Positions 8,879 to 57,704 of a DNA stretch of 64,000 bases are shown here, piece by piece. The notes under the pieces are model-generated. The model had not been told where the DNA came from. It made no database searches and saw only the letters and a program-made list of their open reading frames with translations. The stretch's first letter is position 1, and each line of letters begins with the position of its first letter. This stretch comes from Takakia lepidozioides (lineage: Eukaryota; Plantae; Bryophyta). The position numbers were made by a program, and so were the translations under genes. The DNA lies in the NCBI GenBank assembly GCA_030704615.1, contig CM060732.1:44888001-44952000 (forward strand). The letters are read 5' to 3'.

Positions 8879-8955
8879 AACCTGTCCTTAAACTGTGTCA
8901 TTGTTTTTATTCTTATTTTTTGGTTTAGTGCAGCCTGAAGTACGTTTGTGTCAGC

Positions 8956-11806: not shown

Positions 11807-11840
11807 TTATATGTCACTACCAATGTTGTGCAAGTGGGAG

Positions 11841-12297: not shown

Positions 12298-13162
12298 GTT
12301 ACTTCAGGAGTGAGTCTGCAACTTACAGTTGGAAAGAGTTGGGTGTAGAAACATAAGATGTTGTCAGGTACTTGAACATGAACGCTCAAGTGCGATATCC
12401 ACTGAAATATGATCCCACGCACTTCAATTTCTACAGAGCATTACCATTGCATAAGCAACGAGATCAAATAGCCTTTGGCAATGATGCAATGCTGTGCTCG
12501 ATTTTGAACAGCATGAGGAGAACAACAGCAAGGGCAAGGTCATGAGCTACCCAAAATGTTCTGGGTTCTGTTTTTGCAAGGTGACAATTTTTTGGTGGGA
12601 CAGTAAGGATTGGAACCAGGAATCCTTCCTCGCATTTGTATTGTATAAACTTCAGAAAGAACTCATTTTTGACTTATGGAAACCCCCTTGAATATATGAT
12701 ACTGTGGTTTCTGAGTTTGTCTGCAAATCTTCTAGGTAAAACTCAGGTCAGATCCGACTGCATTTGCAGCTTGAAGGTAAAAAGCAGCGACGAGCCAAGC
12801 GTGGCCGCCAGGAACGGATTGATTTCTAGACTTACTTCTACTAATATTCTACTCAGCATTACTCCAAAAATTAAAGGCCATTAGAGTTGGGTTGGACCTC
12901 GTATGAAGGTTGACTGTCCGTGATAACGCTGTTGGCCATTTTAGCTTCAACTGTAGCAGACATGTAATTGCTCAGTTTCGTGGCTTGCAGGTTCGGTTGC
13001 GCGCTGAGGAGTTTAACATATACTCTGCTGTGAAAAATGGGTGGTATATAATGCCCACGTATGTGTGTATAAATGATCGTGTCAGGATCCACCTAACTCC
13101 AGTCATGGCGTAGGATCCTGGTTCACAAGGACGGAGGAGCTCAAGCGATTCGATGAGCGCAA

Positions 13163-21923: not shown

Positions 21924-23255
21924 GTGAGTCACAACTCCTTTCCCTCCCCCACCATTGCTCATAGGATGGAACCGGTGATGGACAAGAATGTGCTCCTGGT
22001 ATTGGCAGAAATTCTGGTCCTCATGCAATACATACTGGATCAATTTCCAGAGTTGTTTGGATTAGGACATTGCCCACCAATTTTGCATATGGAAGCATCG
22101 CTTTTACAAGTCCAAATTATGGAGGAGGACGAAGATGATACCCTTGAGGAATGCATCCAACAATTTCGTTCGAACCTCAACACGCTCTTCATGATAAAGT
22201 ATCTCAAGCCTAGAGGTTCTATTCCGTCTGGGATGTGGTTGAAGCACAGGTCTAGAGCATGGTTTCAAGATTTTCTCTTGGAGTATGATGATGAACGATC
22301 GCTCACATTCAATTGGCTTTGCAATGTCCTTGCTCCTTGGATTCTATGCAGGACACTAACTATCGCAAGGCTCTATCTATTCCCATGCGGGTTGGGGCTG
22401 TATTGTACAAATTGATATGGGCAGCAACTACCGCAGAAATTACAGAGGCATTCGGGATTTGTGCGTCTTCATTGTATGACCTTTTGCGTTAAGTTGTACC
22501 CGCCATTGTGTCTGCATTAGGGCACCACCTTTAATGGCAAGCTGGCGACACCCTAAGAAAATCCATGCTTGAAAATGAAAGGAGGTCTGGAATTCCGAAC
22601 GTGGTTGGTGTGATTGACTGTACACAAATTAGGATTCCAGCCCCTGCAAACAACATCAAACATGACTACCGAAACAGAATGGGATACTATTCTATGGTGT
22701 TGCAAGGGGTTGTAGATCCGGATGCTAAATTCATAGATATCTACGTTGGGGAGCCAGGAAGTATGAATGACTCAGTATGAATGACTCTAGAGTGTTGCGC
22801 AATCCCTCCTCTTCTATCCAGCGTCTCAGGGGAGGATACTGCGGGGAGAAAGCGTCATTTTGGACAATGGGCATACGATCCCTCCTATTCTTCTTGGTGA
22901 TGCTGTATATCCTTGCCTTCCTTGGCTAATCCCTAGTTACAAAAGAGCTGCTAATGCTCCGGCTCTCTCTAGAGCCAAAACTGTGTTCAACCATCAATTG
23001 TCAAAGGCGAGGATTTATAGTGAAATTGCATTTGGGCGGCTCAAATGTACTTTCAAAGAAGTGGGCTGGAGAAGCGGCCTTCACATTGAGTTCCTGCCAC
23101 AGGCTGTTCATGCATGTTGTATTCTTTACAACATTCTGATGGACTTTGACGATGTGTTCAACGAGATGGATGCACTTGGAGCAATTAGGGAACGGGATCA
23201 TTTGGCCCAAGATCGAGAACCAGCTGCCGATCGGGTCCAAAATGTGGCCCGCTGA
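21924..23255 (+). pseudogene. PIF/Harbinger (HARBI1/DDE_Tnp_4) transposase, disrupted
   Basis: VVGVIDCTQIRI (D1), NRMGYYSMVLQGVVD...GEPGSMNDS, LLGDAVYP (D2), FNHQLSKARIYSEIAFGRLK (E); split by frameshifts and a short duplication at ~22763-22790. Confidence 0.9.
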
Positions 23256-23406
23256 GCTACGGGATATTTTATGTAGCCATATTTTGCACGCATAGTGAGG
23301 TCAATGTTAAGCTGCTAAACTATCTTCGTTCCATCAGGTCTTGTTGACATTGTTTCTTATAGCAAGTAAAGCAGAATTCACAACTTCTGTACTTTTTCTT
23401 TCACAG

Positions 23407-23620
23407 GGCTAAAGACCCTGCCATTTGCAATTGGAGTGGCCATCTATGCGTTTGAAGGCATCAGTCTTGTTCTTCCTCTTGAAACATGCATGGGGAATAG
23501 ATCCAAAGTTTGGGATTGTCTTGGGGGCTGCATGACTTGTATCCTGCTCTTGTACCTGGCATTTGCAGTCCTTGGATACTTCGCATTTGGGTGAAACAGC
23601 AATCCGAATAGTAACAAGAG
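23407..23620 (+). pseudogene. Amino-acid transporter (Aa_trans, ANT1/AVT3-like) exon fragment
   Basis: After a ttttcacag acceptor: GLKTLPFAIGVAIYAFEGISLVLPLE, then frameshifted LLYLAFAVLGYFAFG. Confidence 0.75.
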
Positions 23621-23977
23621 ATTCTGGTTGTAAGATCTTGGCTTTTCTAAGGTCTGTCTCACAATCCATTTGTATCCAGTCAATGGAAAGGACCTGAGCA
23701 CGGTGCTTCCTTGCTCTTCTCCCTCTCAACGGAAGGTCACACATATTCAGCAAGTCACTATCAATCTTCTGGCAGACATCCTTTGGTCTTGCTTGTAAAT
23801 CGAGACTCGCCAGATGTTGCTCATTTTTACCTTTGCAATGTGCCTTGTAATATGTAAAGAAAGAGAATCATTAGCAGGTAAACCAGTGGTTGGGCGCTCT
23901 CATCACTGAATAATTGTGTTTGCTGTAGCCTTTGCCATAGACCTTTAGTGAAAGCAGAGAAGGAGACTGACACAGCT

Positions 23978-23996
23978 TTTAGGGTTTAGGGTTTAG
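23978..23996 (+). repeat. Short interstitial plant telomere repeat (telo-box)
   Basis: tttagggtttagggtttag. Confidence 0.6.
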
Positions 23997-24803
23997 ATTG
24001 ACAATGACTAATTGAGAGACATGGAATTAAAGACTAGAAGGGAGGGGTCTGGAAGAGATGGGTTTCAGTCTGGAAAGGAGGGGTCTCGAAGAGATACATA
24101 TCAGTCTGGAAGAGAGGGGTATCAGTATGGATCAGGAAATGGGTATCCGTCTACTCGTAAGTACCTCTGCTCTGCCTTTTCTTCCATTGTATATCCTAGC
24201 ATTGGTACCTTGCATGTTGTTTGTTGACTTGCAGGCCTTACTTAATTGCTGAATTTTGAGTGACCTCTATTGAGATTTTATTTGTCTGATTGCAATAGCA
24301 ATGTGGTCTCCATTGTGACATGGTGTAGAGGGAAGCCCTTGCTGGAAATTCTGCAAGCTGAATAGTTGTTCCAAGTGTCCAGAACCTTTGCAGGGCCATC
24401 TTGTGCCTTAGAGACCTCACCTTGACGACACCAAATCATTGTTTCCTTTTGTCCGAGGAACTGGTACTCTGCATATTGTTTTTTGCTCTTGAGCAAACTG
24501 TTGAGGTGTGAATTTTGGTTACAGGTGATGTTCTGTTATGGAGCCTATGATGGCTCAATACCCTAGCAATATTGTTCTGAGTTCACTTGTTTTTGTACAC
24601 TCTTATCTGAATTGCATAATGTAGGTCAAATAAATGTGTTTGTACGATCATCTACACTATTTAATTTTAAATAAAGATTCTAATCTGACCCATGCATTGA
24701 TGTAAATCCTACCTTGCGCCGCGCATTTGATGGGGTGCAAAGGTTAATCTTGTTCATTTCTGGTTGAGTCTATGTATTAATTGGTCTGGCTGGCTGGTTA
24801 CAG

Positions 24804-24897
24804 AACAAAAAGGAGAGGAAGAAGGTCTGAGAGGTGGGGATTCTGAAGAAGGACCTGCATGCCATCAAGGAGCAAATCAGAAAACTTGAAATGATGA
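24804..24897 (+). pseudogene. ELF5: WBP11/EARLY FLOWERING 5-like single exon fragment
   Basis: NKKERKKV*EVGILKKDLHAIKEQIRKLEMM between cag and gt matches the WBP11/ELF5 N-terminal NKKERKKVREVGILKKD motif; CGA-to-TGA stop. Confidence 0.7.
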
Positions 24898-25499
24898 GTG
24901 TGTGCTTTTTTCTTCCCATTTAGCACTATTTTCCTTTGTTTCATGTATCATGTCAGAGTAAGTGCAAAAAGGAAACTACTGTGGCCAGGGAGACCTGGAA
25001 GAGAGAGGAAGATAGTAATCCTCTCCAACCCTTCCCTCTTAATGCTGGCTTGTTTTTGAGGGCATAGTCCCTGCAAGCTACTAACCCTCCCAGTGCTGTT
25101 ATGTGTTGAAACCCACCAGGTATGCAGCTATGTGTGGGGTCTTACAAGCAGATGACAATCAGCTGTTGTTGGATTTAAGGGAGGCATTTACATCAAAACA
25201 ACAAAGCCTGGTGTTGTAATTGGCACTGCTACTGTAGCCCCCTTTCTTAACCAAGATTTGTCACCGGTGGTGTAGAGGGAAGGGTAACACATGTGGGAGA
25301 TGGGGAAGTAATGAAGAGAACTAGGTGGTGTTTACATTTACAATGTCACAGTTGACTTATCCTGATGTGCATAGAAAGGCAGATGTTTACATGCAAGGAG
25401 TTTTAAAAATTGGTTGGAAGTTAACCTTTTCTGTTGGCAGATGGTGGAAATGGTTGAGTTTATGACATTGGCCATTTGAGCCATTTGATCAACTCTACC

Positions 25500-25640
25500 C
25501 CTGCTGTACACGTGGGTGTAGCAAGCCTGATGCGAAGGAGGAGTTCGACAATATGGCTAAATGAGATGTGGTATTTTGGAGTGCCATGATTGCAAGGTAT
25601 GTGCAGCATGGGTATAGGAGTAAGGCTTTGGAAACCTAAG
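25500..25640 (+). pseudogene. PLS-class PPR motif fragment
   Basis: CSKPDAKEEFDNMAK*DVVFWSAMIARYVQHGYRSKALET resembles the PPR consensus A..VFD.M..RDVVSW.AMI.GY.QHG. Confidence 0.7.
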
Positions 25641-26149
25641 AATGAAGTCTGAAGTGCTCCCACTACTATTCTGGAAGGCAATGAAGGAGAAGAAGCTGGC
25701 TATGATAGGTTGTTGTTAACTGGGAGCACGAAGGCCTAGAGAGATAGAGGAAGAAGAAAGAATGAGAGGCTGTGAAAGTCAAAAATTCGGGAAAAACGAA
25801 ACAGTTGGACAAGGGTATAAGTTGGCAACAAGAGTGGTTTCTAAGTCGAGACTGGATTAAGATGAGTGAATGACGACATTTGAGTGGTCACAGACAGCAA
25901 AGTGGGAGCTGGTGGACACGAGCAGCCTGAATGGCACTCTGCTCAACAAGCGACCAGTAGCTGCAGTCCCCATGGCTAATGTATCCGGGAGGCAAGAAGA
26001 TATAACAGGTGTTTTGTAATGGCAGGAAATATATGGCAGCAGATGGTAGAGACAGGCAGCGTGTAGCAACATTCTGGGGAGTAGGGGCTGGCCTGCTTCT
26101 GGCAGTGGTTGCGTTCGCTGCCAGAGCGTGGCAACGCCAGTCAAGACCT

Positions 26150-26510
26150 GCCAAAGTGCCGGTCACTCTTCTGTCAGGATTTTTGGGTGCAGGCAAGGTA
26201 GGACTTAGAATTGAATGGGACAAATTAGGCTGTGAAGATTGGCATTCTTATATATACCACATGCATGTCAGTCTCCACCCTATTCACTTTCTTGTAAAAT
26301 GAGACGCCCCACACAAGCCCAATAGCAAGTGTACAATTGTGTACTTATTGAACTGTGTGCATGCTCTTAAAAAAATGTATGTGCAGACTAATGAAAGGGT
26401 GGTGTGGGAAGTGGAGGATACAAACAACACTTTTGGCACAGCTGCTGAAAAATGCCACTGGTCTCCTCCTTGGAATTCGTGTAAATGATCTCGCCGAGGT
26501 TAAACTTTGA
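26150..26510 (+). pseudogene. COG0523/CobW-family GTPase N-terminal fragment
   Basis: KVPVTLLSGFLGAGK, then a gtagg donor, then TTLLAQLLKNATG..GIRVNDLAEV (P-loop plus VND motif). Confidence 0.75.
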
Positions 26511-26655
26511 TGTCCCACTCTTACTTGTTTCCTATTGTGAAAGGGCAACCTGAAAGAGATTCACATAGCATGTCACATACCAGAATCCTGCTGTTATTAA
26601 AAAAAGTAATACCGGCCCAACACTCGTCTTTACAAACCCACCTTTAAGGAAATAA

Positions 26656-26683
26656 GGCCCCGGCCGTACCAGCCTGCTATCGC
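26656..26683 (+). mobile_element. Second putative PIF/Harbinger left terminus
   Basis: TAA + GGCCCCGGCCGTACC...CTGCTATCG, similar to 19110; lies ~380 bp upstream of a Myb/SANT ORF. Confidence 0.6.
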
Positions 26684-27037
26684 CTGCTACGCGGGGCCTA
26701 ACTACTGCTACATAAAAAATCGCGGCCGCATTGAACTGCTTAAAATATTTTAGCGATAACTATTGTTATCTATCCTAAGACTTTCCTTCCTAGTTTAGAG
26801 GGAATTTAGCACTACCCCCCCTCCAGTGCTAAATCTAAACAGCACGTCGTTTTTGGGCAGCTGCCCGTGCCATTCTTCGCCATACGCCATTCACATTCGC
26901 CATTTGCTTCTCCTTCGCTCTTCCCTTCTCTTCGCGTTCCTCTTGCTCAGGTTCCTCGCAGACATAGAAACAGCCCACGCTTATCAACTCTGTCGATTCT
27001 GCTGTTTCTTGCTGTAGTTCCTCTCCTGCATTGCATC

Positions 27038-27553
27038 ATGTCCACCACGACGACGACATCGGATAGGTCGGAGAGTGCAGCTGATGCGGTGGATTCGCAT
27101 GGGGAAGTACCTGCGACATATACTCATGTCGGGAGGCGACCTGGAAAGAGACCACGACAGACGAATTGGTCTGAAAGGGAAATGCACTGGCTTGCAGTTG
27201 CGAAGAAAGAGGAATGGGAAGCATGGAAGGAATCTACTGCCCGAGGGAATATGGTTGTGGACAGGGTGAAGTGGGAAAAGGTGGTTCGGTTCATGGAGAG
27301 CCACGGGGTGAAGGACCGTGATGTGGTCAGCTGCAACAACAAATGGAATATGATAACAAAATTGTACAGAGATATCCGAGGACATCAGCTCCACGCGACA
27401 GGCAATCAGGATTACTGGGGCATGGATGGCAAGGAGCGAGTAGCTCTAGGCCTTCCAAAGGCATTCAGCAAGGACCTTTACAGCGACATAGACTTTTTGG
27501 CGGAGCGAGCATGCAATGCTCTGCGAGCCACTTCGAGCAGCATGCACATGCAG
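27038..27553 (+). CDS. Myb/SANT trihelix DNA-binding protein (Harbinger ORF1-type), first exon or partial
   Basis: RQTNWSEREMHWL...KWEKVVRFMESHGVKDRDVVSCNNKWNMITKLYRDIR...YWGMDGKERVALGLPKAF; ends at a caggtaa donor. Confidence 0.8.
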
Positions 27554-28099
27554 GTAAACTTTTGCAGATAATCCCCTTTTATATGGTTACACTCATGCTA
27601 AACAGTCAGGAATTTTGAAGTATGCAAACCCCGGCTGCTTGCAATGAGGTAGAATTCTGAGTTGGTTCTTAGTTTGCAAGTTGAGGTCAAAATTTGTCTG
27701 AACTACTACCATCAAACTGTCTATCCAGATCTGTCTCCATACCTCCCTTTACATATCCTTGCAGGAAAACCAGTTTTTGGGTCCACAACATAGCGGGAAA
27801 AAATGAAATGTTATGTCCAAGCTGGAATTATCTGTACATGCTCTGACAATTGGGGGCTTAACTATACTCGTTGTGCGTTCAGCAACCGTGACTTCAGTGT
27901 CATTAGCTTTCTTCAGTCCAATGTCTACTTCTGAATTTGCAGCCTCATGTATTGGCTGGCCGCCCCCTTCGTCAACAGCTCTTGGGTCCCTCCAGCAGCC
28001 AACAGAAGCTGCACAACAATAGCTGCTTTGTGTAAACTGCAAACAGAATTAGCATATCCTGAGCTGAGGGACATAAAATCAAGCACACTCAGAGCACAT

Positions 28100-43453: not shown

Positions 43454-43900
43454 GAGCATCTCTACGGTGCCATGGAACTTACTCCAAAACAGCAATCTAC
43501 CGGCGCGGGGTCCAAAAAAGTAGCGCAGCTTGATCCACAGTTGGCTCATCCCGGTAGAATTGTTGCCGGCCCCGCCTTAAATATGCCTCCCGCCCGGCAC
43601 TTTTGCCAATCATACCGGGACCCCACCAACCACGGTACATTAGATTCGTGAGTTATTTCTGAGTTAATGAGATATGATCTCCTCGGTCCACGCGCCAAGA
43701 TTGTGATCGAGATATGATGTCCTTGGTCCATGCGCCAAGATTGAGATCGAGCGGCCGGGCCTGCCTCGGGGCTATATCTGCCGGGTCTTGTACCGTCCCA
43801 ACCGTGGAGTGTCAGCCAACCAGTCATTGTAAGAAATACCGTCGCCCCTGTAACCAGGGTATATAACGTTTGATGGGCCGTGCTCACCGTTGAGATGCTC
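43454..43900. mobile_element. Tourist/Harbinger-type MITE 2
   Basis: TTA|GAGCATCTCTACGGTG...CACCGTTGAGATGCTC|TAA (15/16 TIR match). Confidence 0.8.
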
Positions 43901-44844
43901 TAAGGGCTAGAGCTGACGTCCTAAGAACCAACTAAAAATAAATCAAAATTTTAACCTTAAAAGAAAAAAAGAAAAAATGGAGACTAAATAGAGTTACATA
44001 CATCTATTATCTATCATACAATCTGAAGATGTGTATTTATAGTACATTAATAGATCTGTATATCTTATTGTCTAAATATAGATAAGAGATAAAAAAATCT
44101 AATATTGACATTTCATTAGCTATTACTATTATCTTATTTATAATATATATGTAATAATAATATATTGATAATTCAGAAATTAGACAAACCATTGATTTCT
44201 GTTTTGTGGTTTTATCATAATTAATATCTAGAAGTGCTATAATACTATAATAGAATATGTGAAGAAATGAAGAAAGCAAAATTGAAGCAGATTTGCAATG
44301 AAATTCATTTTTTTCGGGCAGCTTGAGAAATTAACAACGATGACGTGGATGACAAATGAAAGGAAATGATATTAGAGTAGAAAGATTTTTAAAATTTTGT
44401 TTTTTTTTGTTTTTTCTTTCCCCTAGGTATCTTATAAAAGACGAGGATGGTCCATGGCTGACAATGGCAATGACCCTATTCCTGCTCTACACCACAACTA
44501 GTTTCCGACCCTCAGTTGTCACTAAAATATGTGTTATACTAAGGCTACGCGTTGCTCTGCACTACTAGTGACGACTTTTGAGAACACCGTTCTTTTTTAT
44601 TGGAAATATATTTTGTGTGAAAAATAATATGAACAATGTAACAATAGAAAAAAAACTACGGCTAGAGTTAGCATAACTAAAAGCTATATATTTAATTGTC
44701 TAAAATATAGACAAGATATAGAAATCCAATATTAAAAGTTTTGAAATTTTATTAGCTATTACAATTATCAGATTCATAATATGTATATGTATTCTCGTAA
44801 TATATTAGTAATTTGAAACTTGCTAACCATAAAACCAAAGGGTG

Positions 44845-44928
44845 TGTCGTGGACATACATATCGCTACACAACTACATCGCTGTCCAAACCACACCACAC
44901 ATATATGCACAATAAAGTAGTCTACACA
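44845..44928 (-). repeat. Terminal repeat A, outer copy (84 bp, TG...CA)
   Basis: Nearly identical to 45283-45367. Confidence 0.9.
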
Positions 44929-44929
44929 A

Positions 44930-45280
44930 TGATAAAAAGCTAAAAGACACACACTCCCAACACAAAGAAATATAAATCCATCGCTATCACTCTTGAAACT
45001 AGAAGTCGAGCCAGGGGCACCCCAAGCTATGGGGACTCCACCCCACAACCAACTATCCCTACATAAGCACACTCAGATCTAAACGCATGCAGGAGCTCGG
45101 TCGCGCAGGCTCAACTCGAGAGAGATGAGCTGCGCGACTGCCGCTCTCGTGAAGATAAGACGGACCAGGTGTCAAACTAAACTTGACACCTGATTTAACA
45201 CTTGACCTAAATCCAAGTGTTAAATACAAATAACTAGTTTTATTCTAGCTGTTTTCACACTGTGCTTATTTAACTTGACA
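44930..45280 (-). repeat. LTR core B, 3' copy
   Basis: Direct repeat of 56387-56743; TG...CA termini. Confidence 0.9.
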
Positions 45281-45282
45281 GC

Positions 45283-45367
45283 TGTCGTGCGCATACATAT
45301 CGCTACACAACTACATCGCTGTCCAAACCACACCACACATATATGCACAATAAAGTAGTCTGCCACA
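45283..45367 (-). repeat. Terminal repeat A, inner copy (85 bp), directly after the PPT
   Basis: Copy of 44845-44928; on the minus strand it follows the purine tract AGGGGGGCGAT (45378-45368). Confidence 0.9.
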
Positions 45368-45629
45368 ATCGCCCCCCTAGCTGGTGGATAGGTCCCTCTA
45401 CCTCCAGATAGCTACAAGATGTAATAGCCACAGCCGTACTAAGTCCTCTATCACTGTCCCTATTGTACTCAAACTCTATAGACCAAGAGGCCGGGTACAA
45501 GAGTAGCCCCATCGTTAGTCGCCGTCTTGCAATCTGTGAACTTGAGCCAGGACTCGTGTGTTCAAGGTCTCCTGTAGCTGGGCCGCGTTCTTGTTAGCCT
45601 TCCATGGTTGTATCCACTCCCACTATCCA

Positions 45630-47040
45630 ATGCATGTGGACATAACCAATCCCCATCTGGAACCATCTCAAGAGGTGGAGTCAAGCATCCCTATGCCAAC
45701 CTCTAGAGCATCGATCACACACCAGCATGGTGGCTGCCCCTTTAGCAGACCCACACAACATGCACCTCAAACCTGCAGATACCACTGCCAGGTTTGGGTC
45801 AATCCTGCCATCGACATTCGGAAGGTGACATGGCGCACAATTACGCACATGGTCCTTCCAAGTTATGCCATCCCGACCCTCCAAGACCAAGACGCCTGAG
45901 GGCAAGACCTCTCGAACCCTCAAAATAACACGTCCTGCAGTCACATCCAGGGTCGTAGGAGCAGTCTGCTGCAGATAGACATAGTCACCAGGGTTGAATC
46001 TCCGAACCCCAGGACGATAGCCCCCACCACGTATGGTAGCATACCTCAACGTATCACGGGTTGTGCATGGCAAGGTTCTCGAAAGCCATGGGCATGACTC
46101 TCTTGAACAACTCTGCACGCTGCTCACATGCACGTGCCCACACGTCCGGATCGTCAAGGTTAAGAACTGTAGCAGCTTCTCTGCGAATGGATGTAGGCAA
46201 ATCCGGCTCTCGGCCAAAGAGAAGAAAGTATGGTGAGAAGGAGGCAAGTGATGCTTGCTTGCTGAACCTGTAGCCCATGGCTAACCAGGGTAACTGAAGG
46301 TCCCAATCTCCTAGGTGTCCCTTCTGCAAGCCATACTTGCGCAAACCCCTCTTTACTGTCTGAACAACTCTCTCTGCCAAGCCATCGGCTTCAGGATGAT
46401 CCCGAGAAGTGGTGCGGTGGTCTATCAAGGCCTTGTCACACAAAGCCTGAAACCCCAAGAACTCTCTCCCTTGGTCCGTGAGTACCTCAGCTGGAGCACC
46501 GAATCGGCTAAGCACACAATCCAGGAATGCATACGCAGCTCCCTCACTAGCCTTATCAGGCAATGGAACCAATTCAATCCACTTGGAGAAGTGCTCCACC
46601 ATCACCAACACGTACTTGTTGTGGCGCATGGTCAGTGGCAACGGCCCTGCGAAGTCAAGACTCCACCTGTAGCCCAATCCCATGATCGGAAGAGGGTGCA
46701 ATTGTGGAGTAGGGGCGTTGAATGAAGCACGCACCCTGTCACACACCATGCACCTAGCCACAAATTGTTGCACCTCTGTGTGCATACCACGCCACCAATA
46801 CTGCCCCTGCAGTAGACTATGAGTGCGTCGCACCCCAAAATGCCCCAACTCCTCATGGGCATGCCGCACTAACCGTGCCCGCTGTGTTGGGTGAGGCACA
46901 ATCCTCACTCGACCATCCTCCCACACTCGGAGCAGGTGTGTCCCCTCCCACTTGAACCTCTTGGCTCGTTGTAGGATCCGATCCCTCTCCTTGGCAGTCA
47001 TAGTGGCTGCCGTGTCTCCACTGCGGAGGTAGTCCAACAC
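45630..47040 (-). CDS. Gypsy integrase with C-terminal PHD finger (frameshifted)
   Basis: HHCC (HEELGH...CMVC), DDE (WSLDFAGP, LTDQGREF, GLAERVV), RRFNPGDYVYL, then CMLC...CDRCSRGWH.GCLTPPLEMVPDGDWLCP. Confidence 0.9.
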
Positions 47041-47315
47041 AACTGAATCCTCATGTATATCTTTGGCGCCACCCTTGCTAATTGTGGCCTCAGGTCCTCA
47101 GACACTTGATCTACAGTCATCCATGTTGTAGGCCCAACCTGGCCTTCCGCCTGCCAAGATACACAGAAATGCAGATGCATGCCATCCGGGCACCATCTCC
47201 TCGTCCGTCTCACCATGCCACCGAGCTCCAGTGTCATCCTGCTGGCTCGTGCATGGATTGCGACTCAACCCATGCATTTCGATTGACCAAACCCGGTCGA
47301 TGCCACCACTGAAAG

Positions 47316-48700
47316 TCATACTATGAAGGATGGTGCCCACCGTGCAAGCTTCCCCGTAAGCTTGTCTGACTCCATCAACCACTGAGTGGTTGGTGATCCG
47401 TGACAAGGTGAAGAAGAGATTGCCGTATAGATAGCACCTGAAGTGTGCCACGGCCACACTGCAGCTAAGCATTCTCCCTCATATGAGCTATACTTAGACT
47501 CTGCAGCATTGTTCGAGCGGCTAGCATAAGCCACTACGAACTCTCTTCCCTCATCATCCACCTGTGTGAGCACCGCTCCAAGCCCCAGCATGCTCCAATC
47601 TGTATGCAACTGAAAAGGACGCCCCCTGATAGGTCGTCTCAAGATGGCGCCGAGGTCAGCCTCGCCTTGAGCTCTTGAAAAGCTTGTTCTTGCTCATCTT
47701 CCCACTGCCGCTCCTGGTCCACCTTGGTCAGCTTGGTTAGAGCCTTTGCAATGGCACTAAATCCCTTAACAAACCGTCTGTAATAGTTTGCTAACCCCAT
47801 GAAAGCTCGAACTCGGCTCACATCCGTGGGGCGTGGAACCTGTGCAATGGACTCTACCTTAGTCTGCTGTACCCCCAATCCTCCAGGATATATCATGTGA
47901 CCCAGATACTCAATCTGGTTGTGGAAAAACTTGCACTTGCCCGGATGTAACTTCAATCCGTGCGTCCTCAAGCGCTCAAATACCCCCTGAAGGTGTCTCT
48001 CATGCTCCTCCACCGTAGCACTAAAGATGATGATGTCATCTATGTAGCACCGAGCAAACTCCACCCCTGCTAGAATCCTGTCCATGACTCTTTGAAACTC
48101 AGCGGGAGCGTTTTTTAAGCCCAAATGGTAAGAACCGCCACTGGTATAGGCAATCCTTCCCGTGCTCATTGATCCCCCAGAATGCCGTCTTTTGCTTATC
48201 CGCCTCCTTGATCGGCAACTGGTGATATCCGGATCGTAAATCCAACGTGCTAAAGACCTTGGAATGCCCAATGGCATCAAAGATCTCCTCTGTGTTGGCA
48301 TGGCATACCTATCGGACTTGGTCTGACGATTAACAGGCCGGTAATCACCGCACATACGTCTCTCCGTCCAATTGCCATAGACATCCTTCTTAGCTGGCAT
48401 CACTGTGGCTGAAGCATACTCTCCACCAGAGAGCTCCACCAAACCTGCCTCCCAGAGATCTTGAGTCCTCATCTGAATCAAAGACCTCTCCATGTCACTG
48501 TATCTATAGGGTCTCCGAAAGATTGGCGTGTCAGTGGCCAACTCAATACGGATCTCTTGACCCTTCAGTGCTCCCAAGTCCTTCAAACTGAAGGCAAAGC
48601 AATTCCTATAAGCCCTCAGGAACCGCCGTATACGTCGTCTCTCTCCTCCGGTGACAATGGGTCCAATGTCAGGCTCCCAATTGTCCTCCGTAACTGCAAC
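47316..48700 (-). CDS. Gypsy reverse transcriptase and RNase H (frameshifted)
   Basis: RRMCGDYRPVN, GLKNAPAEFQRVMD, YIDDII, KCKF...YLGH; RNase H FQLHTDWS..GLGAVL...AYASR...YEGECLAAVW. Confidence 0.95.
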
Positions 48701-49039
48701 CTTAAGTCCAGTGGGCTTAGAGGTAGAGGACGCGTCCCGTGGTTGCTACGCTGCAACCTCTTGAGCAGTATCCCCTTCCTGCTCAGTCAATGACAAGGCC
48801 TCATCCTGCCCCATCATCTCATCATTGAGAACCTCCTCATCCCGAGAGAATCCCCAACCTCATCCATCACAGCTGCCTTCGCTGCCAACTCCCTCTGAAC
48901 CTCGAGCACCTCCCACGTGTGCCATGGATGTCTACACCTCGTGGTCCTCACCGGCTCGCCCCCACTCGCTGCCTGTACCGTCTCGGTAGGCAGAGAGACC
49001 GTCAAGGGAAGTGCACTCCGCACTCTACGTTGCTCAGCC

Positions 49040-49995
49040 ATAGCCAAGCTGACAATCCAGGTCAAGCAATTGAGATCCATTGCTTGCCCCAACACCTGAC
49101 GACGTGATGCCTCAGAAAGAGAAGGCACCGCCGTGGTCCCAGTGGAAAACCCCATAGCCCGCTCTCGCTCGTCGGCATTAGGCTCCACTAACTGCTGCAA
49201 CTGAGCATCCCACAAGAGGCCAGGTCCACCATCCCGAAAAGCATGGGATCCTGGGAAGCTGAGCAGTGTAGGTAATGCTGCTCGTGGTTGACCCACCTGT
49301 TGACCACTGCCAAAGGCGAACGGTCATCGTGTCTCACACGTTGAGACTGCCTTCCTGTGTCCAAAATGCCATCCACGGTGAGGTGTGCTGGCCGCTGCAC
49401 CCCATCAAATGCACGCTTGAGCAGTGCGGGTGGCATCAAGTTAGTCCACCATAGTCGTGGACGATGAGCCCGTGACCCCACTGCAGCTGCATCCAGCAAT
49501 ACTGCTGACCCAAGCCACGACCGGACTTGATGCACACTGGCCATCACCCTGGCCCGAGAATCACCCATCAGTGGTACATTCTCCAAGATGTATGCTGGAG
49601 ATACAGCTTGATGAAGCTGCAAGCAGCGCAAAATCCGCACCATCTCCCAAAACAGACCCGTCCTCGAGTCTCGCAATCCATTGCCATGCCCGGCTGATGA
49701 ATGCCCTTGGCAGGGCCAACCTGCCACTATCAGATCAATGGAGCCAACCTGCTCCAAATCTTGCGCCCCCAACAAGGAAATGTCTGCTGGCAAGGCTTGT
49801 TGGTATCCACGAACTGCAGACACAGGCAACAAGTCAGGGTACTGCTGTACCAACTGAGCCACATGGCGCAGTGAGACGCGTCGTGCAGTCTCATCCCTCT
49901 CCACATACAGGTAACGCCTTACCCGCACACCTGCCTGTAGCACAGCAGCCAATCCGGTGCTGATCCCGCCAAACAAGTCCAGAAGGCAAATGCCT
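49040..49995 (-). CDS. DNMT3-like C5 cytosine DNA methyltransferase domain within the polyprotein
   Basis: Motif I LLDLFGGI, II YLYVERD, III ADI, IV AGWPCQ, VI ILENV, VIII HRPRLWWTN, IX ERERAMGF, X RRQVLGQAM; one frameshift near 49295. Confidence 0.9.
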
Positions 49996-50101
49996 TCATC
50001 CGGCCGCTGCCACACAAGAGGTGTGGTGTCCAATGGCGACAACTGAGGTGGCCCTGGTGCAATCACCGCACTCTCCTCCTCTCCTGACGGTACAAAAGCT
50101 T

Positions 50102-51049
50102 CTACCCAAGCTTGTTGCACCGTCCATCAGCAGCTTGCTGCAAATCCTTGCTCGTACCCCACAACGGAGTGTGAGCAACCATGGCAGGCAACTCCGCCGT
50201 ACCATGCATGTCATCCTGCTCTGCTGGAGGTGGCACATCCTCTGCATGGGCATTGCCTTCCAGCAACTCTCCAGGCCAACTAACTGCAGCTGTGAAGGCG
50301 GCTAGTGTTGGCATCTTGCCCCGCTGGGCAGCTGCAATACCCCCAATGAATGTCACAGGGAGCTGTGCACGGCGACCATCCCCTGACTGCCATCCAGGCC
50401 TGTAGGATGCTGACTCCTCCCAGAAATCCAGGGTGAAGCCCATGGGGTATAACACTGCCCCACCAACGAGGACATCGTAAGAGACCGCGTCTGTCACAAT
50501 GGCCTTGGCTCGCATCACTGAGCCATCTACAGGATGATCCGGCTGCAGTCTAATAGCCAACTGATGCCGTGTCATGCCGCGAGCCTGCTCTGATCCTCCC
50601 AGAGATGTCTGTATCTGGAAAGGACAAGGCTCCATATCCGCCTCCATGAGGCCCAAACCTGCAATAGCAGCTCTGCCCAACATCAGTGGCTGAGCTCCTG
50701 AGTCCAACAAGACCCGCAGTGGCCGGTACTTCTTGCCTGCCGGTCCACTCAAAGTGAAAATGCCTCCCTGGTTGTCTAACAAGACAACTCCAGGTGTCAC
50801 CATGGCGCGCTCAATGGCTGGCCTAGCTGGCAGCTCCGTCAACCTGGCAGCTGCAACTTGCCATGGCGCAGCCGTGGCAGTCTTGACCCTCAAATCCGAG
50901 GATCCCTCTGCCACTATACCTTCCACTAACTCCGCAGAAGATGAAGTGACCTCCCCACTCTCACAGAGAGTTGCTGCTAGTCTGAACACTGCAGCTGGTC
51001 TCACCCCGGCGTCGCAATCATGGTTGCCGAGAACAGTGGGGCTTGACAC
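50102..51049 (-). CDS. Retropepsin-like aspartic protease region
   Basis: RVLLDSGAQPLMLG active-site motif and SYDVLVGG C-terminal motif. Confidence 0.85.
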   Translation of the reverse strand: MSSPTVLGNHDCDAGVRPAAVFRLAATLCESGEVTSSSAELVEGIVAEGSSDLRVKTATAAPWQVAAARLTELPARPAIERAMVTPGVVLLDNQGGIFTLSGPAGKKYRPLRVLLDSGAQPLMLGRAAIAGLGLMEADMEPCPFQIQTSLGGSEQARGMTRHQLAIRLQPDHPVDGSVMRAKAIVTDAVSYDVLVGGAVLYPMGFTLDFWEESASYRPGWQSGDGRRAQLPVTFIGGIAAAQRGKMPTLAAFTAAVSWPGELLEGNAHAEDVPPPAEQDDMHGTAELPAMVAHTPLWGTSKDLQQAADGRCNKLG

Positions 51050-52920
51050 ACAGAGGTGGCTGCCCCCAATAACACACCGGTTGCACTAGCCTTGGTAGCA
51101 GGTGTCAGTGCTGCACGTGTAGCTCTCCCCAATGGCATAGTAACCTCCGCCTCGGTAACCGTCGGGCGAGAACTAGGTGCCATGGATGGCGTTGACACTG
51201 TCTCCGCCAAGGTGAATGACTGAGGCAGCCTCGCCTGACGGCTTGCCTCCCCACGTTGTGGATCCAACTCCACCTCTGCACCTCGTGGCTCAGGAACTCG
51301 TGCTGCTCCTCGAGTCACGGCTGCAGCAGACTCCACCTGCTCTAGTGGTAGTGCTGCTCCGCACATGAATCCCATGCCTCCCATATCTCCTCCATCAGGA
51401 GCAGGAGGTGGACCATCCCGCCTGGGAGCCGGTACCGCCTGAGCTATAGCCATGGCAGCGAGCCTCTGCTCTAGCTGCTGAAGCCGATTGGCCATGCCTT
51501 GGTCAACACCTTGACCTCCGCGTCCTTGGCCATGTGGAGCTTGCCCTTGGCCTGCACCTCGTGCCCGACCACCTCGTCCTCTTTGGGCTGGTCCACCTCG
51601 CCCCCGGCCACCATTGTTCCCTTGGAACTGGCCTGGGCGCAACTCAGGATGCAAGTCATAACACTGGGCATCTACATGCCCATACTTGCCACAATGCCCA
51701 CACTGCAACTGTGCAGGCTGTGCTTGTGCCGGCCTTCTGCCATTCTCTGGGCAATCTCTTTTGACATGGGGTCCTCCACATGTCCAACATATCACCCATG
51801 GTTGCTGTTGGCCTGCAAAAGATGCCACGGGCCTCTGCACCTGAGGTCCCCTGTGTGCTCCATGGAACTTGGGCTGGGCTACCTTGCCCCCCTGACCACG
51901 CTGTTGGGCAGTCCCTTGTGCCTGTGGGCTGACAGCTGTGCCCCGTACAGGCATGTCCTTGCCAAATCCAATTGTAACAACTCGCTCCTCCACCATGTTG
52001 AGCTCAATCCGCTCAGCCAGCAGAAACACATCTGCTAATGTGGGTTGGGCTGCTTGTAACAGGGTTGCATCTCGCACCCTTCTCTTGAGCTCCTTGTCCA
52101 GAATTCCATACCAAAACTGGATTGCCTGAGCTTCAGTAACCCCTTGGGTCACACTTATCAAGCGCCTCATACGAGTGTACGCCTCTCGCAGGCTCTCACT
52201 GGGTTTGCGCTGGAAGTCTTGCAAACTTCGCAGCTTCTCTGTCCGTACACCTTGGTAGTTCCTCCGCAACTCCTGGAAGAACTCCACCACCGGGTTGAAT
52301 CTAGGCACATGTGTTGTAGTTGTGGCAGGAGGAGTAGTAGCACCTTTTGAACTGGTACCACCTACAGAAGTACCAGCACTACCTGCTCCACTACTAGTGC
52401 TGGCAGTGGGAGCTATTGGTACTGATGCAGCTACTGGTCGCGTCGTGCCTCGAGTAATGGAGACGTAGTCAGGTGACCAATACATCCTCCACTCCTCAAT
52501 CTCTGCTTCATGTCCTCGCCTGAACTCGTGGTAATCGTCCATAGGCGGGCCTTCCAAATGCTGGAACAGTCCCTTCCACGCCATGAATGGGGTGAATAGC
52601 TGTGGATTGCGCATCTGCTGCAAATCACACCAGCTGTCGAACTCCTGGATAAAGTCATCCAACTCGATTGTGCCCACAGCTCCAGAGTACCTACGAGGCC
52701 CCTTGGTAGCTCCATACATCTCCTCCATGTCGTCCCACAACAATGGCGAATGAAAGTGCACACCTGTTGATGAAGCCTCCGAGTCTGTGTCTGACTCTAC
52801 AGTAATTGAGGGTGGCGGTGAAGGTGGTCTGAACCAAATACCTCGTCTTGTGAACCCACTCTCACTGTTACTGCCTGTAGCCGTACTCCCCTCAACCCTT
52901 GGGTAACTCCGTAATGACAC
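51001..52920 (-). CDS. gag: Gag with two CCHC zinc knuckles
   Basis: 639-aa ORF with capsid-like FQRKPSESLREAYTRMRRL, CWTCGGPHVKRDC, CGHCGKYGHVDAQC and an RGG-rich tail. Confidence 0.9.
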   Translation of the reverse strand: MSLRSYPRVEGSTATGSNSESGFTRRGIWFRPPSPPPSITVESDTDSEASSTGVHFHSPLLWDDMEEMYGATKGPRRYSGAVGTIELDDFIQEFDSWCDLQQMRNPQLFTPFMAWKGLFQHLEGPPMDDYHEFRRGHEAEIEEWRMYWSPDYVSITRGTTRPVAASVPIAPTASTSSGAGSAGTSVGGTSSKGATTPPATTTTHVPRFNPVVEFFQELRRNYQGVRTEKLRSLQDFQRKPSESLREAYTRMRRLISVTQGVTEAQAIQFWYGILDKELKRRVRDATLLQAAQPTLADVFLLAERIELNMVEERVVTIGFGKDMPVRGTAVSPQAQGTAQQRGQGGKVAQPKFHGAHRGPQVQRPVASFAGQQQPWVICWTCGGPHVKRDCPENGRRPAQAQPAQLQCGHCGKYGHVDAQCYDLHPELRPGQFQGNNGGRGRGGPAQRGRGGRARGAGQGQAPHGQGRGGQGVDQGMANRLQQLEQRLAAMAIAQAVPAPRRDGPPPAPDGGDMGGMGFMCGAALPLEQVESAAAVTRGAARVPEPRGAEVELDPQRGEASRQARLPQSFTLAETVSTPSMAPSSRPTVTEAEVTMPLGRATRAALTPATKASATGVLLGAATSVCQAPLFSATMIATPG

Positions 52921-53461
52921 TCACAATGTGCACCTCCTCCACGTGACACTATAAGGCTCTAGTACTAATCTAATAGTGACACGGGTGGGCACCTGTTGCA
53001 GTTTAAGGGTCATATCCCAATGGCTCAGGGCACCTGCACCTGCATCCACCGCAAGAACTCCTATGGTTGGCTGGTCATCAACCCAACCTCACCATAGAAG
53101 AAACACTGGTGGTCTTGCTGGTCATCACTCCAGCCTCACCACCGACAGCATACTCTAGGATTGACCGGTGATCAAATCCGGCCTAATCCCTATGAAAGCA
53201 AGCGCCCACACAAAACCAACATGGCGCACAGTCAAGCATGCAGGTGTTGGGGGGGATCCAAACACAAGAAATCAAAACATCAACACCCCCACACCAAAAT
53301 CCAGCTGCAATGCTGATCCTGCAGAATATCCCAGCCCAAAACCCCGGACTGACTGGCCTCCACCAAGAGAGGCTTTGGCAACTACAAGTACAAGGTAATG
53401 AAAATAGTACAGAGATGGAGGGGAAGAATAGAAGCCCAACCAAGCAAGATCTAATCCTGAT

Positions 53462-54210
53462 CTATGCTATCAACTGCCAGACTTCTCTCACAGTGCCTCG
53501 CTCTGCATGATGGTAAGGTGTAGGAGGTATATCTATGTCCAGAAACCTGCCACTAACCTTGTCCCAAGCTACAGTAGCTCGCTCTAACCAACCCTCCTCC
53601 TCTTTCTGCCAGGTAGAGACAAAGCAATACTCCCCTATCTCCCGCTCACTGAACACTAAAGAAAACAAAGGTAGGGTCTGATAGTCTCTCAACTCGAAAG
53701 CTTTGAGACGGTTGCGGGTGTCCTCATTGCGAATGACTGCATCTCCTTCACGCACAACAAACATGTCATTGCTGATGAACCCCCGCTCGTGGTTGCCCTG
53801 TGTAGAGCGTATCCGGCTGCAACCATGTCTGATTGCACAAACTTGTGTAGCTCCTGCTCCTCTGCTCCAGTACACCACGGCCTTGTGACTGAACACCTTG
53901 GTCCCCGGGGCTGTCTTTGGCTGTGTTCCAAGCCTAGCTTTCACCCACTTTGGTATTTCACCTACAGCTGCAAACTGTTGGCTCCAACAGAGTTCTGACT
54001 GTCCAAGGCGATATTGAGGCCCTCAATGCCAACTACAGCAGTCTGTTGTCTACTGCTAATGCCTGACTCCCAGTATGCAATCAACTCGTCCAACTGTTCT
54101 CCACTCAAATCAGTCTGAGTTCCTTGGGAAACATAAATCCTGTCCCCTTGTGTGCACAGACTAAGAGAAGAGACCTGCCCTTCAATTACGTCCTCATTTC
54201 CCCCAGCCAT
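53462..54210 (-). CDS. Additional ORF of unknown function upstream of gag (two pieces, probably one frameshifted ~250-aa ORF)
   Basis: The 82-aa and 160-aa ORFs are co-oriented and joinable by one frameshift near 53975; no motif recognised. Confidence 0.45.
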
Positions 54211-54463
54211 GCAAGGAGTACATCCACCAATTTGTCTCTCATATAGACCAGCACAGGTTCTAGAGACAGGATTGTGGATCTTTCATGGCACACTCACACT
54301 CTAAAAATTCCATAGATTTTTAGTAGAGTCCCAAAAACAGAAACCAGGTCTAGATAGGTAGATTTCCCCTTTCTGCAGCTATCCCCTCAAAAACTGAGTC
54401 AAACGGAGCTCATTTGACAAAGAAATGACCAACCAGGCTCTTTAAACATTTAAATTAGATCAA

Positions 54464-54468
<5 letters not shown>

Positions 54469-54499
<31 letters not shown>
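54469..54499. repeat. 31-nt poly(T) (poly(A) on the element's sense strand)
   Basis: Homopolymer visible in the sequence. Confidence 0.9.
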
Positions 54500-54503
<4 letters not shown>

Positions 54504-54819
54504 CCAAAACGCTTTTGCCATTACAACCTGTTCCCAGGTTATCTACGAGTTCCCGAGGTCGTTCATGTAGTTCTCACAGGTTCCCTTACCAATGTCCACA
54601 GAGCTTGAGCTGCCAAAACAAAACGGGATCTTTGCACCACGGCCAAGGAAGGGGCCGCAGCAAGCCGCGTGCATGCCATTGCTGTCGCCATCTCTTTCCC
54701 GCTTCCTCACCTAGCCCAAGCTTGCAAACTCTGAGTGGGCTCTATTGCGAGTTTCTCCTCGCCGAGCAGATGCCAGCACAGCGACGGCAGATCGAACGGA
54801 CGGCCAATCTTCGAACCTA

Positions 54820-55111
<292 letters not shown>

Positions 55112-55230
55112 TGATTTGGTGTCCGCCAGACTTATGCTTCCTGGCCCCAGCCGAATAGAGAGAACGCTGCCCCAACAATTGTAGACTTCCGCTTCGCTTA
55201 TTTGAAGACGATGCTTGGCAAAATCTTATC

Positions 55231-55830
55231 TCAGTAAGTGATATTAAGAAACTTGGCCATGGCTTCCACGGCACCTGGTGGCCACTGCAGCTCTACACCA
55301 ATCCACCTGATATTGCTGTACTGCGGTTCCCGAGCAGTGGTCTCAGAGAACCGTTCCTCTGCCCGGCTGCGGTCACCTTCTCTCCACAGCACTGCCGCTA
55401 GAGCTGCATGAGCCTCAGTGTAATTTGGATACTTCCGGACAAGGCCTTGTATCAGTTTCTTGGCCTCCCCCAATCTGTCGAGCTGAAAGAGAACCAGAGC
55501 TTACTTGAGTCGGTATCTGAAATCCTGGGCCGCCTCCTCAAACTTCAGAAGGGAGACCCTCACACTCCCCCGGTTGGACCAGACACTGGCATTTGCGGAA
55601 TCCTCATCTATCAAAGCTGAAAACAATTCTTCAGCAATTTCCAGGTCTCCAGCAACCGCCGCCCTGAGAGCATCCTGCAGCTTGGGATTTTCAACGTCTT
55701 TGAGCTTTACTCTCGTTGAAACTGCTGCTTTTGCAGGAAGATCAACATTGCCCAACCTTAGTGCTCCAAGTGCCACAGAAAGGCTGAATAACAGCTGGCG
55801 TCAGGCAGTTACTGACGAGTGCCCTGCGAT
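55231..55830 (-). pseudogene. Captured thylakoid-lumen-type TPR protein sequence, processed and internally deleted
   Basis: (R)RQLL...PAKA targeting-like signal, VWSNRGSVRVSLLKFEEAAQDF (TPR), in-frame stop, then LVRKYPNYTEAHAALAAVLW.EGDRSRAE...WPP. Confidence 0.75.
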
Positions 55831-56159
55831 ACCGGCATTACCATCTCTTCCTTCTCGTTGTAGTCGTCTCTCTGCCTGGCCGCTCCTCAGCTACAGACCG
55901 CAGGCTTCGTTGAAACTTGAGCTGGGTAATACCCTGATTCTTGGGCTCTCCATAAGCGGTACCCTTGCTCACAGGCCTCTTCAATCCAAAAAAACGGGCT
56001 GGCTTGGAGTCACCCACGGCAAGCCCTTCATTTCCACTCCACACGGCAGCCCTGAGACGATGACAGGATCGCTGCAGAAGAATCTAGGCACGAAAAAGAG
56101 CTAACCTCTAACCCGTTGTTACTTGATGAATCAATCAGGCAGCATTCATCTCCAGTAGC

Positions 56160-56291
56160 CTGAGCAAGATCTCTACTAAACGCGTGACTCCAGCAAGATC
56201 CGCTAGCAGTAACTGCAAGTGAAGTATCCACCGCAAGCTTAATAGCTTTCTGCCGCTCCGGAATGGTTAAACACTCAGTTGAATCATTCAT
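56160..56291 (-). pseudogene. Captured IBH1/AIF-like atypical bHLH N-terminal fragment
   Basis: ERQKAIKLAVDTSLAVTASGSCWSHAF resembles the IBH1-like AIKL.AD.AMA......WSRAL motif. Confidence 0.5.
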
Positions 56292-56370
56292 AGACCTGTG
56301 TCACACCAAGGTATATTATAATAGTGCTAAAACAAACATTATATCTAGCTTAGCACTAGAAAACTAGATG

Positions 56371-56386
56371 GCTGATCTCTCTCGAG
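56371..56386 (-). promoter_or_regulatory. Putative self-priming PBS
   Basis: Minus-strand CTCGAGAGAGATCAGC directly abuts the 5' LTR and is complementary (15/16) to LTR positions 56578-56593. Confidence 0.65.
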
Positions 56387-56743
56387 TGATAATGAAGCTT
56401 GAAAGGACATACACTCCCAACACAAGAAATATAAAATCCATCGCTATCACTCATTGAAACTGAAGTCGAGCCAGGGGCACCCCAAGCTATGGGGACTCCA
56501 CCCCACAACAACCTGTATCCCTACATAAGCACACTAAAAACCTAAACACATGCAGGAGCTCGGTCGCGCAGGCTCAACTCGAGAGAGATGAGCTGCGCGA
56601 CTGCCGCTCTCGTGAAGATAAGACAGACCAGGTGTCAAACTAAACTTGACACCTGATTTAACACTTGACCTAAATCCAAGTGTTAAATACAAATAACTAG
56701 TTTTATTCTAGCTGTTTTCACACTGTGCTTATTTAACTTGACA
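56387..56743 (-). repeat. LTR core B, 5' copy
   Basis: Direct repeat of 44930-45280; flanked externally by TSD GGTG. Confidence 0.9.
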
Positions 56744-57704
56744 GGTGGAATTTCTGAGGGTTTTAAAAACTGGGTAAATTATTAAATTCTGTTTGATGGT
56801 TTTATCATAATTAATATTAAGTGCTGTTACATTGAATGTATGAAGAAACAAAAGAAAAAAGTAATACTAGATTATATTTTCGAAAAGGATTTTTAGATTT
56901 CGTTTTTTTTTTCTGGGGCAACTTAAAAAATGACCACGTGGTGATGATGACAGTTTTCAAAGTTCAGTTTTCTTTTTTTTCCTTGTGGCTTTAAAATGAC
57001 GACGATGACATGACTGCCGATTAACAAAATTCATTTCTTTTATGGGCAGCTTTAAAAATGATGGAAATGACATGGCTGATGATAATGTGGTGATGATGAT
57101 GTGGTGACCATGCCATATCACTGTTCCATCCTATTATTGCTCTACAACACTAAAACTAGTCTTCGACCTTCATTTGTCACTAGAACTAGGGTCGCACATT
57201 GCTTCGTACTACTCGTGAGAACAATGTCAAAAAAGTTCAACGTTTATTTCATTTTGATTGGAAATATATTATATGCGAAAAATAAGGAGTAATGTAAGAC
57301 TTAATGTAGGAGTGCGAAATGTGAGTAGTTTTGCTGGTTTGGAATAGCATCAGCTTCTTGAGCTTGTTGAGAAAAAGAGAGTATTATGGATCAACCGATT
57401 ACTTACCCTTCCATGTTGCCCTGGTTACGGCCATGTTTACCTTCCAAATGGAAAGCGGTAGTCTTTCAGGGTGAAGTGACTCCGTATAAACAAGAAAAAT
57501 CCTAGTATTAAGATTTTTGATATTTCATTAGCTATTACCATTCAGATTTAATATATATACATATACACTGGTAAGCTGAAACATGCTCACCACAAAACCA
57601 AAGGGTTGATCTTGTGAGGGTTTCGAATTTCTGTTTGGTGATTGGATCATAGTAATGCGTAGAAGTGCTATAACAATTACATTGAATATCTAAAGAAAAC
57701 TTAA

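Follow-up and report, generated by a model that had tools for sequence, protein, structure and literature searches.

A decayed Ty3/Gypsy retrotransposon of Takakia lepidozioides represents an abundant bryophyte family that carries a DNMT3-type methyltransferase ahead of a conserved stop codon and is bounded by split repeats

We describe a dead, decayed copy of an abundant, DNMT3-carrying Ty3/Gypsy retrotransposon family in the genome of the bryophyte Takakia lepidozioides. The element occupies positions 44845–56743 on the minus strand of the window, that is, the whole 64,000-nt stretch analyzed here (assembly GCA_030704615.1, contig CM060732.1, positions 44,888,001 to 44,952,000). It is 11,899 bp long, has the ends TGTC...GACA, and is flanked by 4-bp target-site duplications at 56744–56747 (5′ side) and 44841–44844 (3′ side). 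The explanation that we regard as reasonably probable is that of a dead copy of a high-copy Gypsy element that would place a Gag-level DNMT3 in its particles, express Pol by readthrough, prime itself and integrate by means of a palindrome-cutting integrase.

The coding region, all on the minus strand, starts with gag with a zinc knuckle (51004–52728; 50% identity to Marchantia Mp4g09160 and a weak match to PF03732), followed by an aspartic protease (LLDSGAQ) with a linker (50132–51003; PF13650 is matched by relatives), a DNMT3-type C5 cytosine methyltransferase with motifs I–X (48814–50126), a YIDD reverse transcriptase (RT) with RNase H, broken in the window copy (47300–48745), a DDE integrase with an H2C2 zinc domain (46066–47073), and an integrase C-terminal region with a weakly matching PHD finger, broken near 45690 (45600–46058). 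The best PDB match of the integrase is Ty3 Gag-Pol, and its closest structures are those of Ty3 and foamy virus. Apart from the inserted methyltransferase, the order gag-protease-RT-RNase H-integrase with a DDE integrase, along with the primer site, purine tract, TG...CA ends and 4-bp target duplication, is that of Ty3/Gypsy elements; two identical terminal LTRs bounded by the priming sites were not found, the layout being A-int-B-A-B or A-int-B. No tyrosine recombinase was matched in 12 scanned frames, which instead matched rve and H2C2, and a Pfam scan gave no chromodomain match after the integrase, where the PHD finger is present instead. Compared with intact relatives, the window copy has approximately 10 frame changes from gag to the PHD finger, and length differences occur at such places in numerous further contigs from this organism, so that the window copy is a decayed one.

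The 5′ leader holds a copy-specific, host-derived insert of approximately 1.85 kb (54458–56307, minus strand) that ends in poly(A), seen as poly(T) on the plus strand at 54458–54500, contains by Pfam matches a piece of a TPR-protein gene and an antisense kinesin piece, and has AAGGT at both edges. Sequencing depth is about 1000-fold lower across 54632–56083, which makes this insert particular to the window copy; it is either a retrocopy insertion or a template-switch capture. An older AT-rich repeat surrounds the element, with pieces on both sides (43900–44844 and 56748–57700). Elsewhere in the window, exons of an NRT1/PTR transporter (13163–15087, minus strand) show 54–55% identity to clusters that include Sphagnum proteins and at most 44% to seed-plant proteins with a named source, a pattern indicative of a bryophyte host; pieces of a Harbinger-like transposase and a Myb/SANT-like frame, judged by eye, lie at 21864–27571 (plus strand); and 460-bp direct repeats 3.4 kb apart (8406–12298) flank a copia-like integrase fragment, forming a shortened LTR element.

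The earlier note, made from the sequence alone, had read a series of C5-methyltransferase motifs between the DSG protease and the YIDD RT, and each of these motifs was recovered from the minus strand, in the order quoted there. LFGGI, YVERD, GWPCQ, ENV and RPRLWWTN fall in the frame 49188–50126, and ERERAMGF and RRQVLGQAM in the frame 48814–49323; the two frames meet near 49300, where a frame change breaks the methyltransferase ORF. The protease motif lies in the frame 50102–51085 and YIDD in 47639–48745. The PF00145 search proposed there as a check gave, for the unaltered 312-aa N-terminal piece, an E-value of 1.4e-13 and a score of 51.5 bits, the cut-off being 22, and the matches in the ESM Atlas were to PF00145 clusters only. 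The DNMT3-like assignment was likewise borne out, both by profile search and by the fold of a natural relative. In a PDB profile search with 21 sequences, human DNMT3A (2.7e-17) ranked ahead of DRM (3e-9), HhaI (1e-5) and DNMT2 (5e-5), and DNMT3A and DNMT3B both stood far above these three. The relative P0001 (71% identity) was folded from an alignment with 74 homologues at pLDDT 88, and the predicted fold matches the DNMT3A-DNA structure with a TM-score of 0.83 over the target; a single-sequence fold reached pLDDT 34. Across 67 distinct loci (the best 80 of 222 relatives confirmed in a metagenome scan, minus 13 near-duplicates), the catalytic cysteine is present in 66 of 66, a count that is biased, as are all counts for motifs I and IV, because both motifs served as scan bait; the glutamate is kept in 61 of 67 and the RxR arginines in 44 of 65 and 46 of 64, the remainder being CpG-type decay, including the arginine losses in motifs VIII and IX. 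The methyltransferase domain is thus assigned by sequence to the DNMT3 type, with a fold that modeling of P0001 predicts to be complete.

The methyltransferase belongs to the family as a whole. The gene order gag-protease-DNMT-RT-RNase H-integrase was found in many of the best 80 of the 222 metagenome loci and is standard where contigs are long enough; it recurs in proteins of Marchantia, Calypogeia and Sphagnum, so that the domain is shared family-wide, by Sphagnum-type loci and Marchantia proteins alike. The DNMT relatives with a named source are those of Marchantia, Calypogeia and Sphagnum, with which the window DNMT falls into a 19-row group (SH-aLRT 99) in a quick 50-row tree. At least five full-length Gag-protease-DNMT3 models of the family are present in Marchantia polymorpha. 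In one run, the summed contig depth over the element, the DNMT included, exceeds that of the flanks more than 1000-fold, a value that is not a copy number; a run guessed to be RNA spans a large part of the element, but does not count as evidence of expression. A scan of a viral collection yielded one weak locus, which was without retroelement domains. Five proteins of 1570–2000 aa (P0143, P0148, P0149, P0272 and P0278) carry the DNMT after RNase H and ahead of the integrase, end in a PHD finger, and form a group of their own in the DNMT and RT trees.

These data leave practically no probability to the idea that a piece of a host DNMT3 gene was captured once or inserted as a nested fragment. 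The window copy did take up other host sequence in its leader; however, the depth of the DNMT equals that of the rest of the element, the gene order is identical in liverworts and mosses, and the DNMT, RT and integrase trees divide the same groups, and on these three grounds the capture scenario is refuted.

Selection on the domain was examined between and within families. The prospect that the DNMT evolves neutrally is not borne out between families, where dN/dS is near 0.1, indicating purifying selection. The median values for the window versus the 67 distinct loci are 0.12 and 0.06 for the DNMT parts, 0.09 for the integrase and 0.14 for the N-terminal part of the RT, all of them rough because dS is near saturation; in the same comparison, synonymous sites are saturated in gag, protease, RT core and RNase H. 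Within the Sphagnum-type family, variants confined to one copy have a nearly neutral dN/dS of 0.9, as expected after insertion, and variants common to at least four copies give 0.61 and 0.42 for the DNMT, 0.29–0.47 for the RT and 0.41 for the integrase, the constraint on the DNMT at this level being weaker than that on the RT core and RNase H (0.29). Extra CpG depletion, taken as a sign of self-methylation, was absent both from the window element (observed/expected 0.51, against 0.52–0.55 in the remaining window) and from six Sphagnum-type copies (0.49–0.57, against 0.17–0.50 in the flanks).

A conserved stop codon follows the methyltransferase. In the window, the RT frame reads GCG TAG CAA CCA 16 codons ahead of the RT match, with the stop itself at 48746–48748 and the stop plus its context, a predicted readthrough signal, at 48740–48748. 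A stop occupies the matching place in 41 of 42 distinct junction-spanning loci (28 TAG and 13 TAA) and is followed by CAA-C in 40; it is also found in three divergent families besides that of the window, and no conserved methionine follows it. The linker between DNMT and RT keeps both in one frame in undamaged copies. Five Marchantia gag-protease-DNMT models of 1278–1281 aa are unbroken and end at the matching place, and no YIDD RT follows in any of 13 long proteins that have a zinc knuckle, the catalytic motif and motif X. Two Marchantia models, P0129 and P0133, join DNMT to RT, and both are without the linker that holds the stop.

The earlier claim of a single polyprotein whose junctions were damaged by 1-bp shifts therefore stands in part: DNMT and RT do share a frame, but the DNMT-RT junction is not only damage, given that the conserved stop at 48746–48748 separates the two. 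To judge from the reading frames, a single polyprotein would be made only through readthrough. The conserved stop assigns the enzyme to the Gag-protease-DNMT3 frame, and the RT is likely to need readthrough. This first frame, closed by the stop, would yield the methyltransferase at the level of Gag, and RT, RNase H, integrase and PHD finger would come from occasional readthrough, in the range of a few percent. In plant viruses, CAR-YYA after a stop directs readthrough (PMC2194720, consulted in part); the window and the locus L002 match this signal in full, and the Sphagnum-type context, CAA-CCC, matches it partially. That the codon is instead a true stop, with pol expressed by splicing, from a separate RNA or by re-initiation, we consider unlikely. 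The TAA identity of 13 of the 41 stops would suit such a route, as would the CCC in which most Sphagnum-type contexts end, a methionine three codons past the stop in the Sphagnum-type family, and the outcome of RNA folding, in which no shared structure was found 3′ of the stop (z-scores −1.9, 0.4 and −1.5). That methionine is, however, missing from the window and two other families, and a true stop does not account for the frame that is kept across it or for the nearly invariant CAA-C.

The ends of the element have the layout A-internal-purine tract-B-A-B. Repeat A1 at the 5′ end (56387–56743, 357 bp) differs from A2 (44930–45280) by 15 mismatches over 347 aligned bases. Immediately after A1 comes a primer-binding site of the self-priming type, without a TGG start (56375–56386), that is complementary to a 12-nt stretch within A1 (56578–56589), the predicted transcript 5′ end and self-primer; a complement of 12 nt was reached in none of 2000 shuffles. 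On the other side of the coding region, a polypurine tract (45369–45380) immediately precedes repeat B1 (45283–45368), which is followed by A2 and, with no spacer, by B2 at the 3′ end (44845–44929). The joint of B1 and A2 is marked by the palindrome GACAGCTGTC (GACA-GC-TGTC, 45277–45286), the predicted integrase cut site, which is matched once in the window versus 0.07 times expected.

The Sphagnum-type family has diverged from the window almost to saturation at synonymous sites and has the same A-int-B-A-B layout, the same purine tract ahead of B, and a palindrome that is identical in three loci and differs by one base in a fourth. The primer site and the stretch complementary to it have different sequences in the two families, and within each family they nonetheless pair with one another; in the Sphagnum-type family, the pairing extends up to 16 nt and lies approximately 26–30 nt below a TATA box. 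The same primer pairing extends over 18 nt in a contig of another study, and, of 20 distinct old copies, only 11 retain an exact complement of at least 9 nt. Among seven complete copies, the 4-bp target duplication is exact in five (control: 2 of 223 mismatched pairs); one of the other two has three of four bases matching, and one is ambiguous, with a damaged 5′ end. At none of 22 distinct 5′ ends does B stand ahead of A, and 17 of the 22 start exactly with TGTCA; of 14 readable 3′ ends, a count that leaves out one rearranged and one edge locus, five continue from B into A and nine stop at B. The A|B joint is exact in all four readable cases (the window, L017, L064 and L067). A rearranged copy (L022:12587–13483, and L024) has inverted pieces of gag and repeat A ahead of B and is still flanked by a 4-bp duplication; this rearrangement could be a product of auto-integration.

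It is very improbable that these split repeats are ordinary LTR biology misread, with B a duplicated piece of an LTR, the A-int-B copies recombinants, and the free ends processed normally. Recombination between B1 and B2 would also yield A-int-B, which is the more frequent of the two forms, at 9 of the 14 readable 3′ ends. An ordinary LTR is hard to reconcile, however, with a purine tract ahead of B and a primer site after A in both families when none of the 22 5′ ends starts with B, with target duplications that abut the start of A and the end of B, or with a palindrome shared letter for letter by two families that differ in the remainder of their repeats. The end structure, the target duplications and the shared palindrome largely refute that interpretation.

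Under the split-repeat reading, the minus strand would be primed, as in Tf1-type elements, by the RNA 5′ end paired to the site after repeat A, and the plus strand would start at the purine tract ahead of B. From the two priming sites it follows that the copied unit is B+A at each end and that the reverse transcript should be B-A-int-B-A. Because the inserted ends, the start of A and the end of B, lie inside this unit, the integrase most likely cuts the palindrome, and we consider such internal cleavage, as deduced from the arrangement of the repeats, likely. If both strands were cut behind the CA, in staggered fashion, at the B/A joint (GACA^GC-TGTC), the products would be CA-3′ ends with 5′ overhangs of 2 nt. 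CA-3′ ends are the usual substrate for strand transfer by integrases. The HIV integrase is able to cut its own palindromic circle junction (PMC1905944, consulted in part).

If the A end were first joined to the start of B, in a two-repeat circle or by an extra template switch onto the B2 copy in the RNA, integration would give A-int-B-A-B, the replicating form; without prior A-B joining it would give A-int-B, which, having no terminal redundancy, would be dead on arrival. Both forms are present among the copies. From a simple circle with two repeats and two equal cut sites, one would expect A-B-A-int-B at the same frequency as A-int-B-A-B; the former is seen at none of the 22 5′ ends, although A-B-A-int-B could be lost when its two copies of A recombine. 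The exact A|B joint in the four readable cases is better explained by templated copying from RNA than by end joining. More tentatively, and with somewhat less than even confidence, we propose an ancient green-plant Gypsy lineage that does not integrate through free ends, in which the DDE integrase must cut a palindrome in the cDNA, much as tyrosine-recombinase elements and bacterial IS circles work through a junction, and the particles carry a Gag-level DNMT3. In its boldest form, DNMT3 would mark the cDNA, perhaps at palindrome-adjacent CpG, and so choose between the two possible cut sites; if true, this would explain why A-int-B-A-B was found and never A-B-A-int-B.

Gag-fused domains are delivered to the site of cDNA synthesis, and the same may hold for the DNMT3 of this element. 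Fusion to Gag would place the enzyme where cDNA is made, which makes methylation of the cDNA its simplest role; on the basis of domain order, we consider methylation of new cDNA in the particle moderately probable. The alternative, which we find rather unlikely, is that DNMT3 acts outside the particle, in the nucleus on host or family DNA in trans, whether as self-limiting silencing or as a disturbance of host silencing, or that it serves as a nucleic-acid-binding module. A slot in the abundant Gag frame suits any bulk role, the element shows no CpG depletion, and related elements place the DNMT elsewhere, between RNase H and integrase; the algal relative from Klebsormidium, moreover, produced no methylation in yeast, a result that its authors call inconclusive (PMC5890265, consulted in part). 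Against such a role, the catalytic motifs are kept across families, the modeled fold appears complete, and Gag fusion would bring the DNMT to the site of cDNA synthesis.

The closest known system is KnitGypsy-Dnmt3 of Klebsormidium nitens (PMC5890265, known to us from the published description), and the kinship that the earlier note had drawn with it holds at the level of design: a DNMT3 in a Gypsy element with DIRS-like repeats. Both have Gypsy domains, an intronless, non-permuted DNMT3 under purifying selection and, according to the legend of Fig. 4c in that paper, A-coding-B-A-B repeats as in DIRS. KnitGypsy-Dnmt3 is described as having the DNMT3 inside the Pol ORF, an algal host and few copies, whereas the element described here is found in a land plant at very high depth, with its DNMT in a stop-closed Gag-protease frame that is shared with the RT across the stop; in comparison with that description, it further differs in its integrase PHD finger, defined palindrome, self-priming site and 4-bp duplication. 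The accessible part of that paper gives no mechanism for the KnitGypsy repeats and does not mention Marchantia or PHD. The tyrosine-recombinase element SymbioDIRS-Dnmt3, with split direct repeats, likewise combines A-coding-B-A-B with DNMT3, and its DNMT3 domain methylates CG in yeast (PMC5890265), but it uses a tyrosine recombinase, in contrast to the DDE integrase, purine tract and 4-bp duplications of the window element. Tf1/Sushi elements and plant Tcn1 chromoviruses, the latter with moss hosts, likewise have a primer site complementary to the 5′ repeat and not to a tRNA (PMC6317226); the window element is unlike them in its PHD finger, the lack of a chromodomain match, the DNMT3 and the split repeats, and in the available portion of that plant LTR survey the words PHD, methyltransferase, Marchantia and readthrough do not occur. 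LTR elements with both a methyltransferase and a chromatin-reader domain also exist in Euglena and Cymbomonas, as EpiLTRs, but their DNMT is sister to DNMT4 and is accompanied by a Dam enzyme and a chromodomain; in that preprint, as far as its accessible text goes, the streptophyte Gypsy-DNMT3 is treated as a separate acquisition (bioRxiv 10.64898/2026.05.21.726589). In the accessible parts of later papers, the 2018 case is cited as "streptophytes", with no land-plant case (PMC12344493; bioRxiv 10.64898/2026.05.21.726589). At the HIV 2-LTR circle junction, a DDE integrase likewise cuts an internal palindrome of two abutted ends, but as a side reaction (PMC1905944, in part), whereas in the window element the cut would be the required route, at a palindrome within the repeat with a 2-bp spacer.

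In the open-access literature, we found no land-plant Gypsy-DNMT3, conserved stop or palindrome of this kind, and the 2018 KnitGypsy legend was the one mention of split repeats in a Gypsy element. Among other known elements, REM1 of Chlamydomonas is a PHD-bearing Gypsy, and the circle junctions of the IS3 family embody an idea similar to the proposed cut. Software for LTR finding expects two terminal LTRs and would thus miss or mis-trim A-int-B-A-B elements, which may be why such elements have gone unreported in bryophytes.

With the DNMT cargo, a design known from algae extends to bryophytes, among them a model species in which the frames are intact; the surprising parts are the signal for Gag-level expression and the palindrome-based ends. 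The palindrome, if cut as proposed, would make this an LTR element that integrates through internal cleavage, a testable proposition; to our knowledge, the one known instance of internal cleavage is a side reaction of retroviral integrases. The dose of the enzyme would be set at the level of Gag by the conserved stop. What retrotransposon-borne DNMTs do has been an open question from 2018 on, their hosts having been hard to work with. Marchantia polymorpha is a standard model, and with at least five full-length Gag-protease-DNMT3 models there, the role of the DNMT becomes testable in that species.
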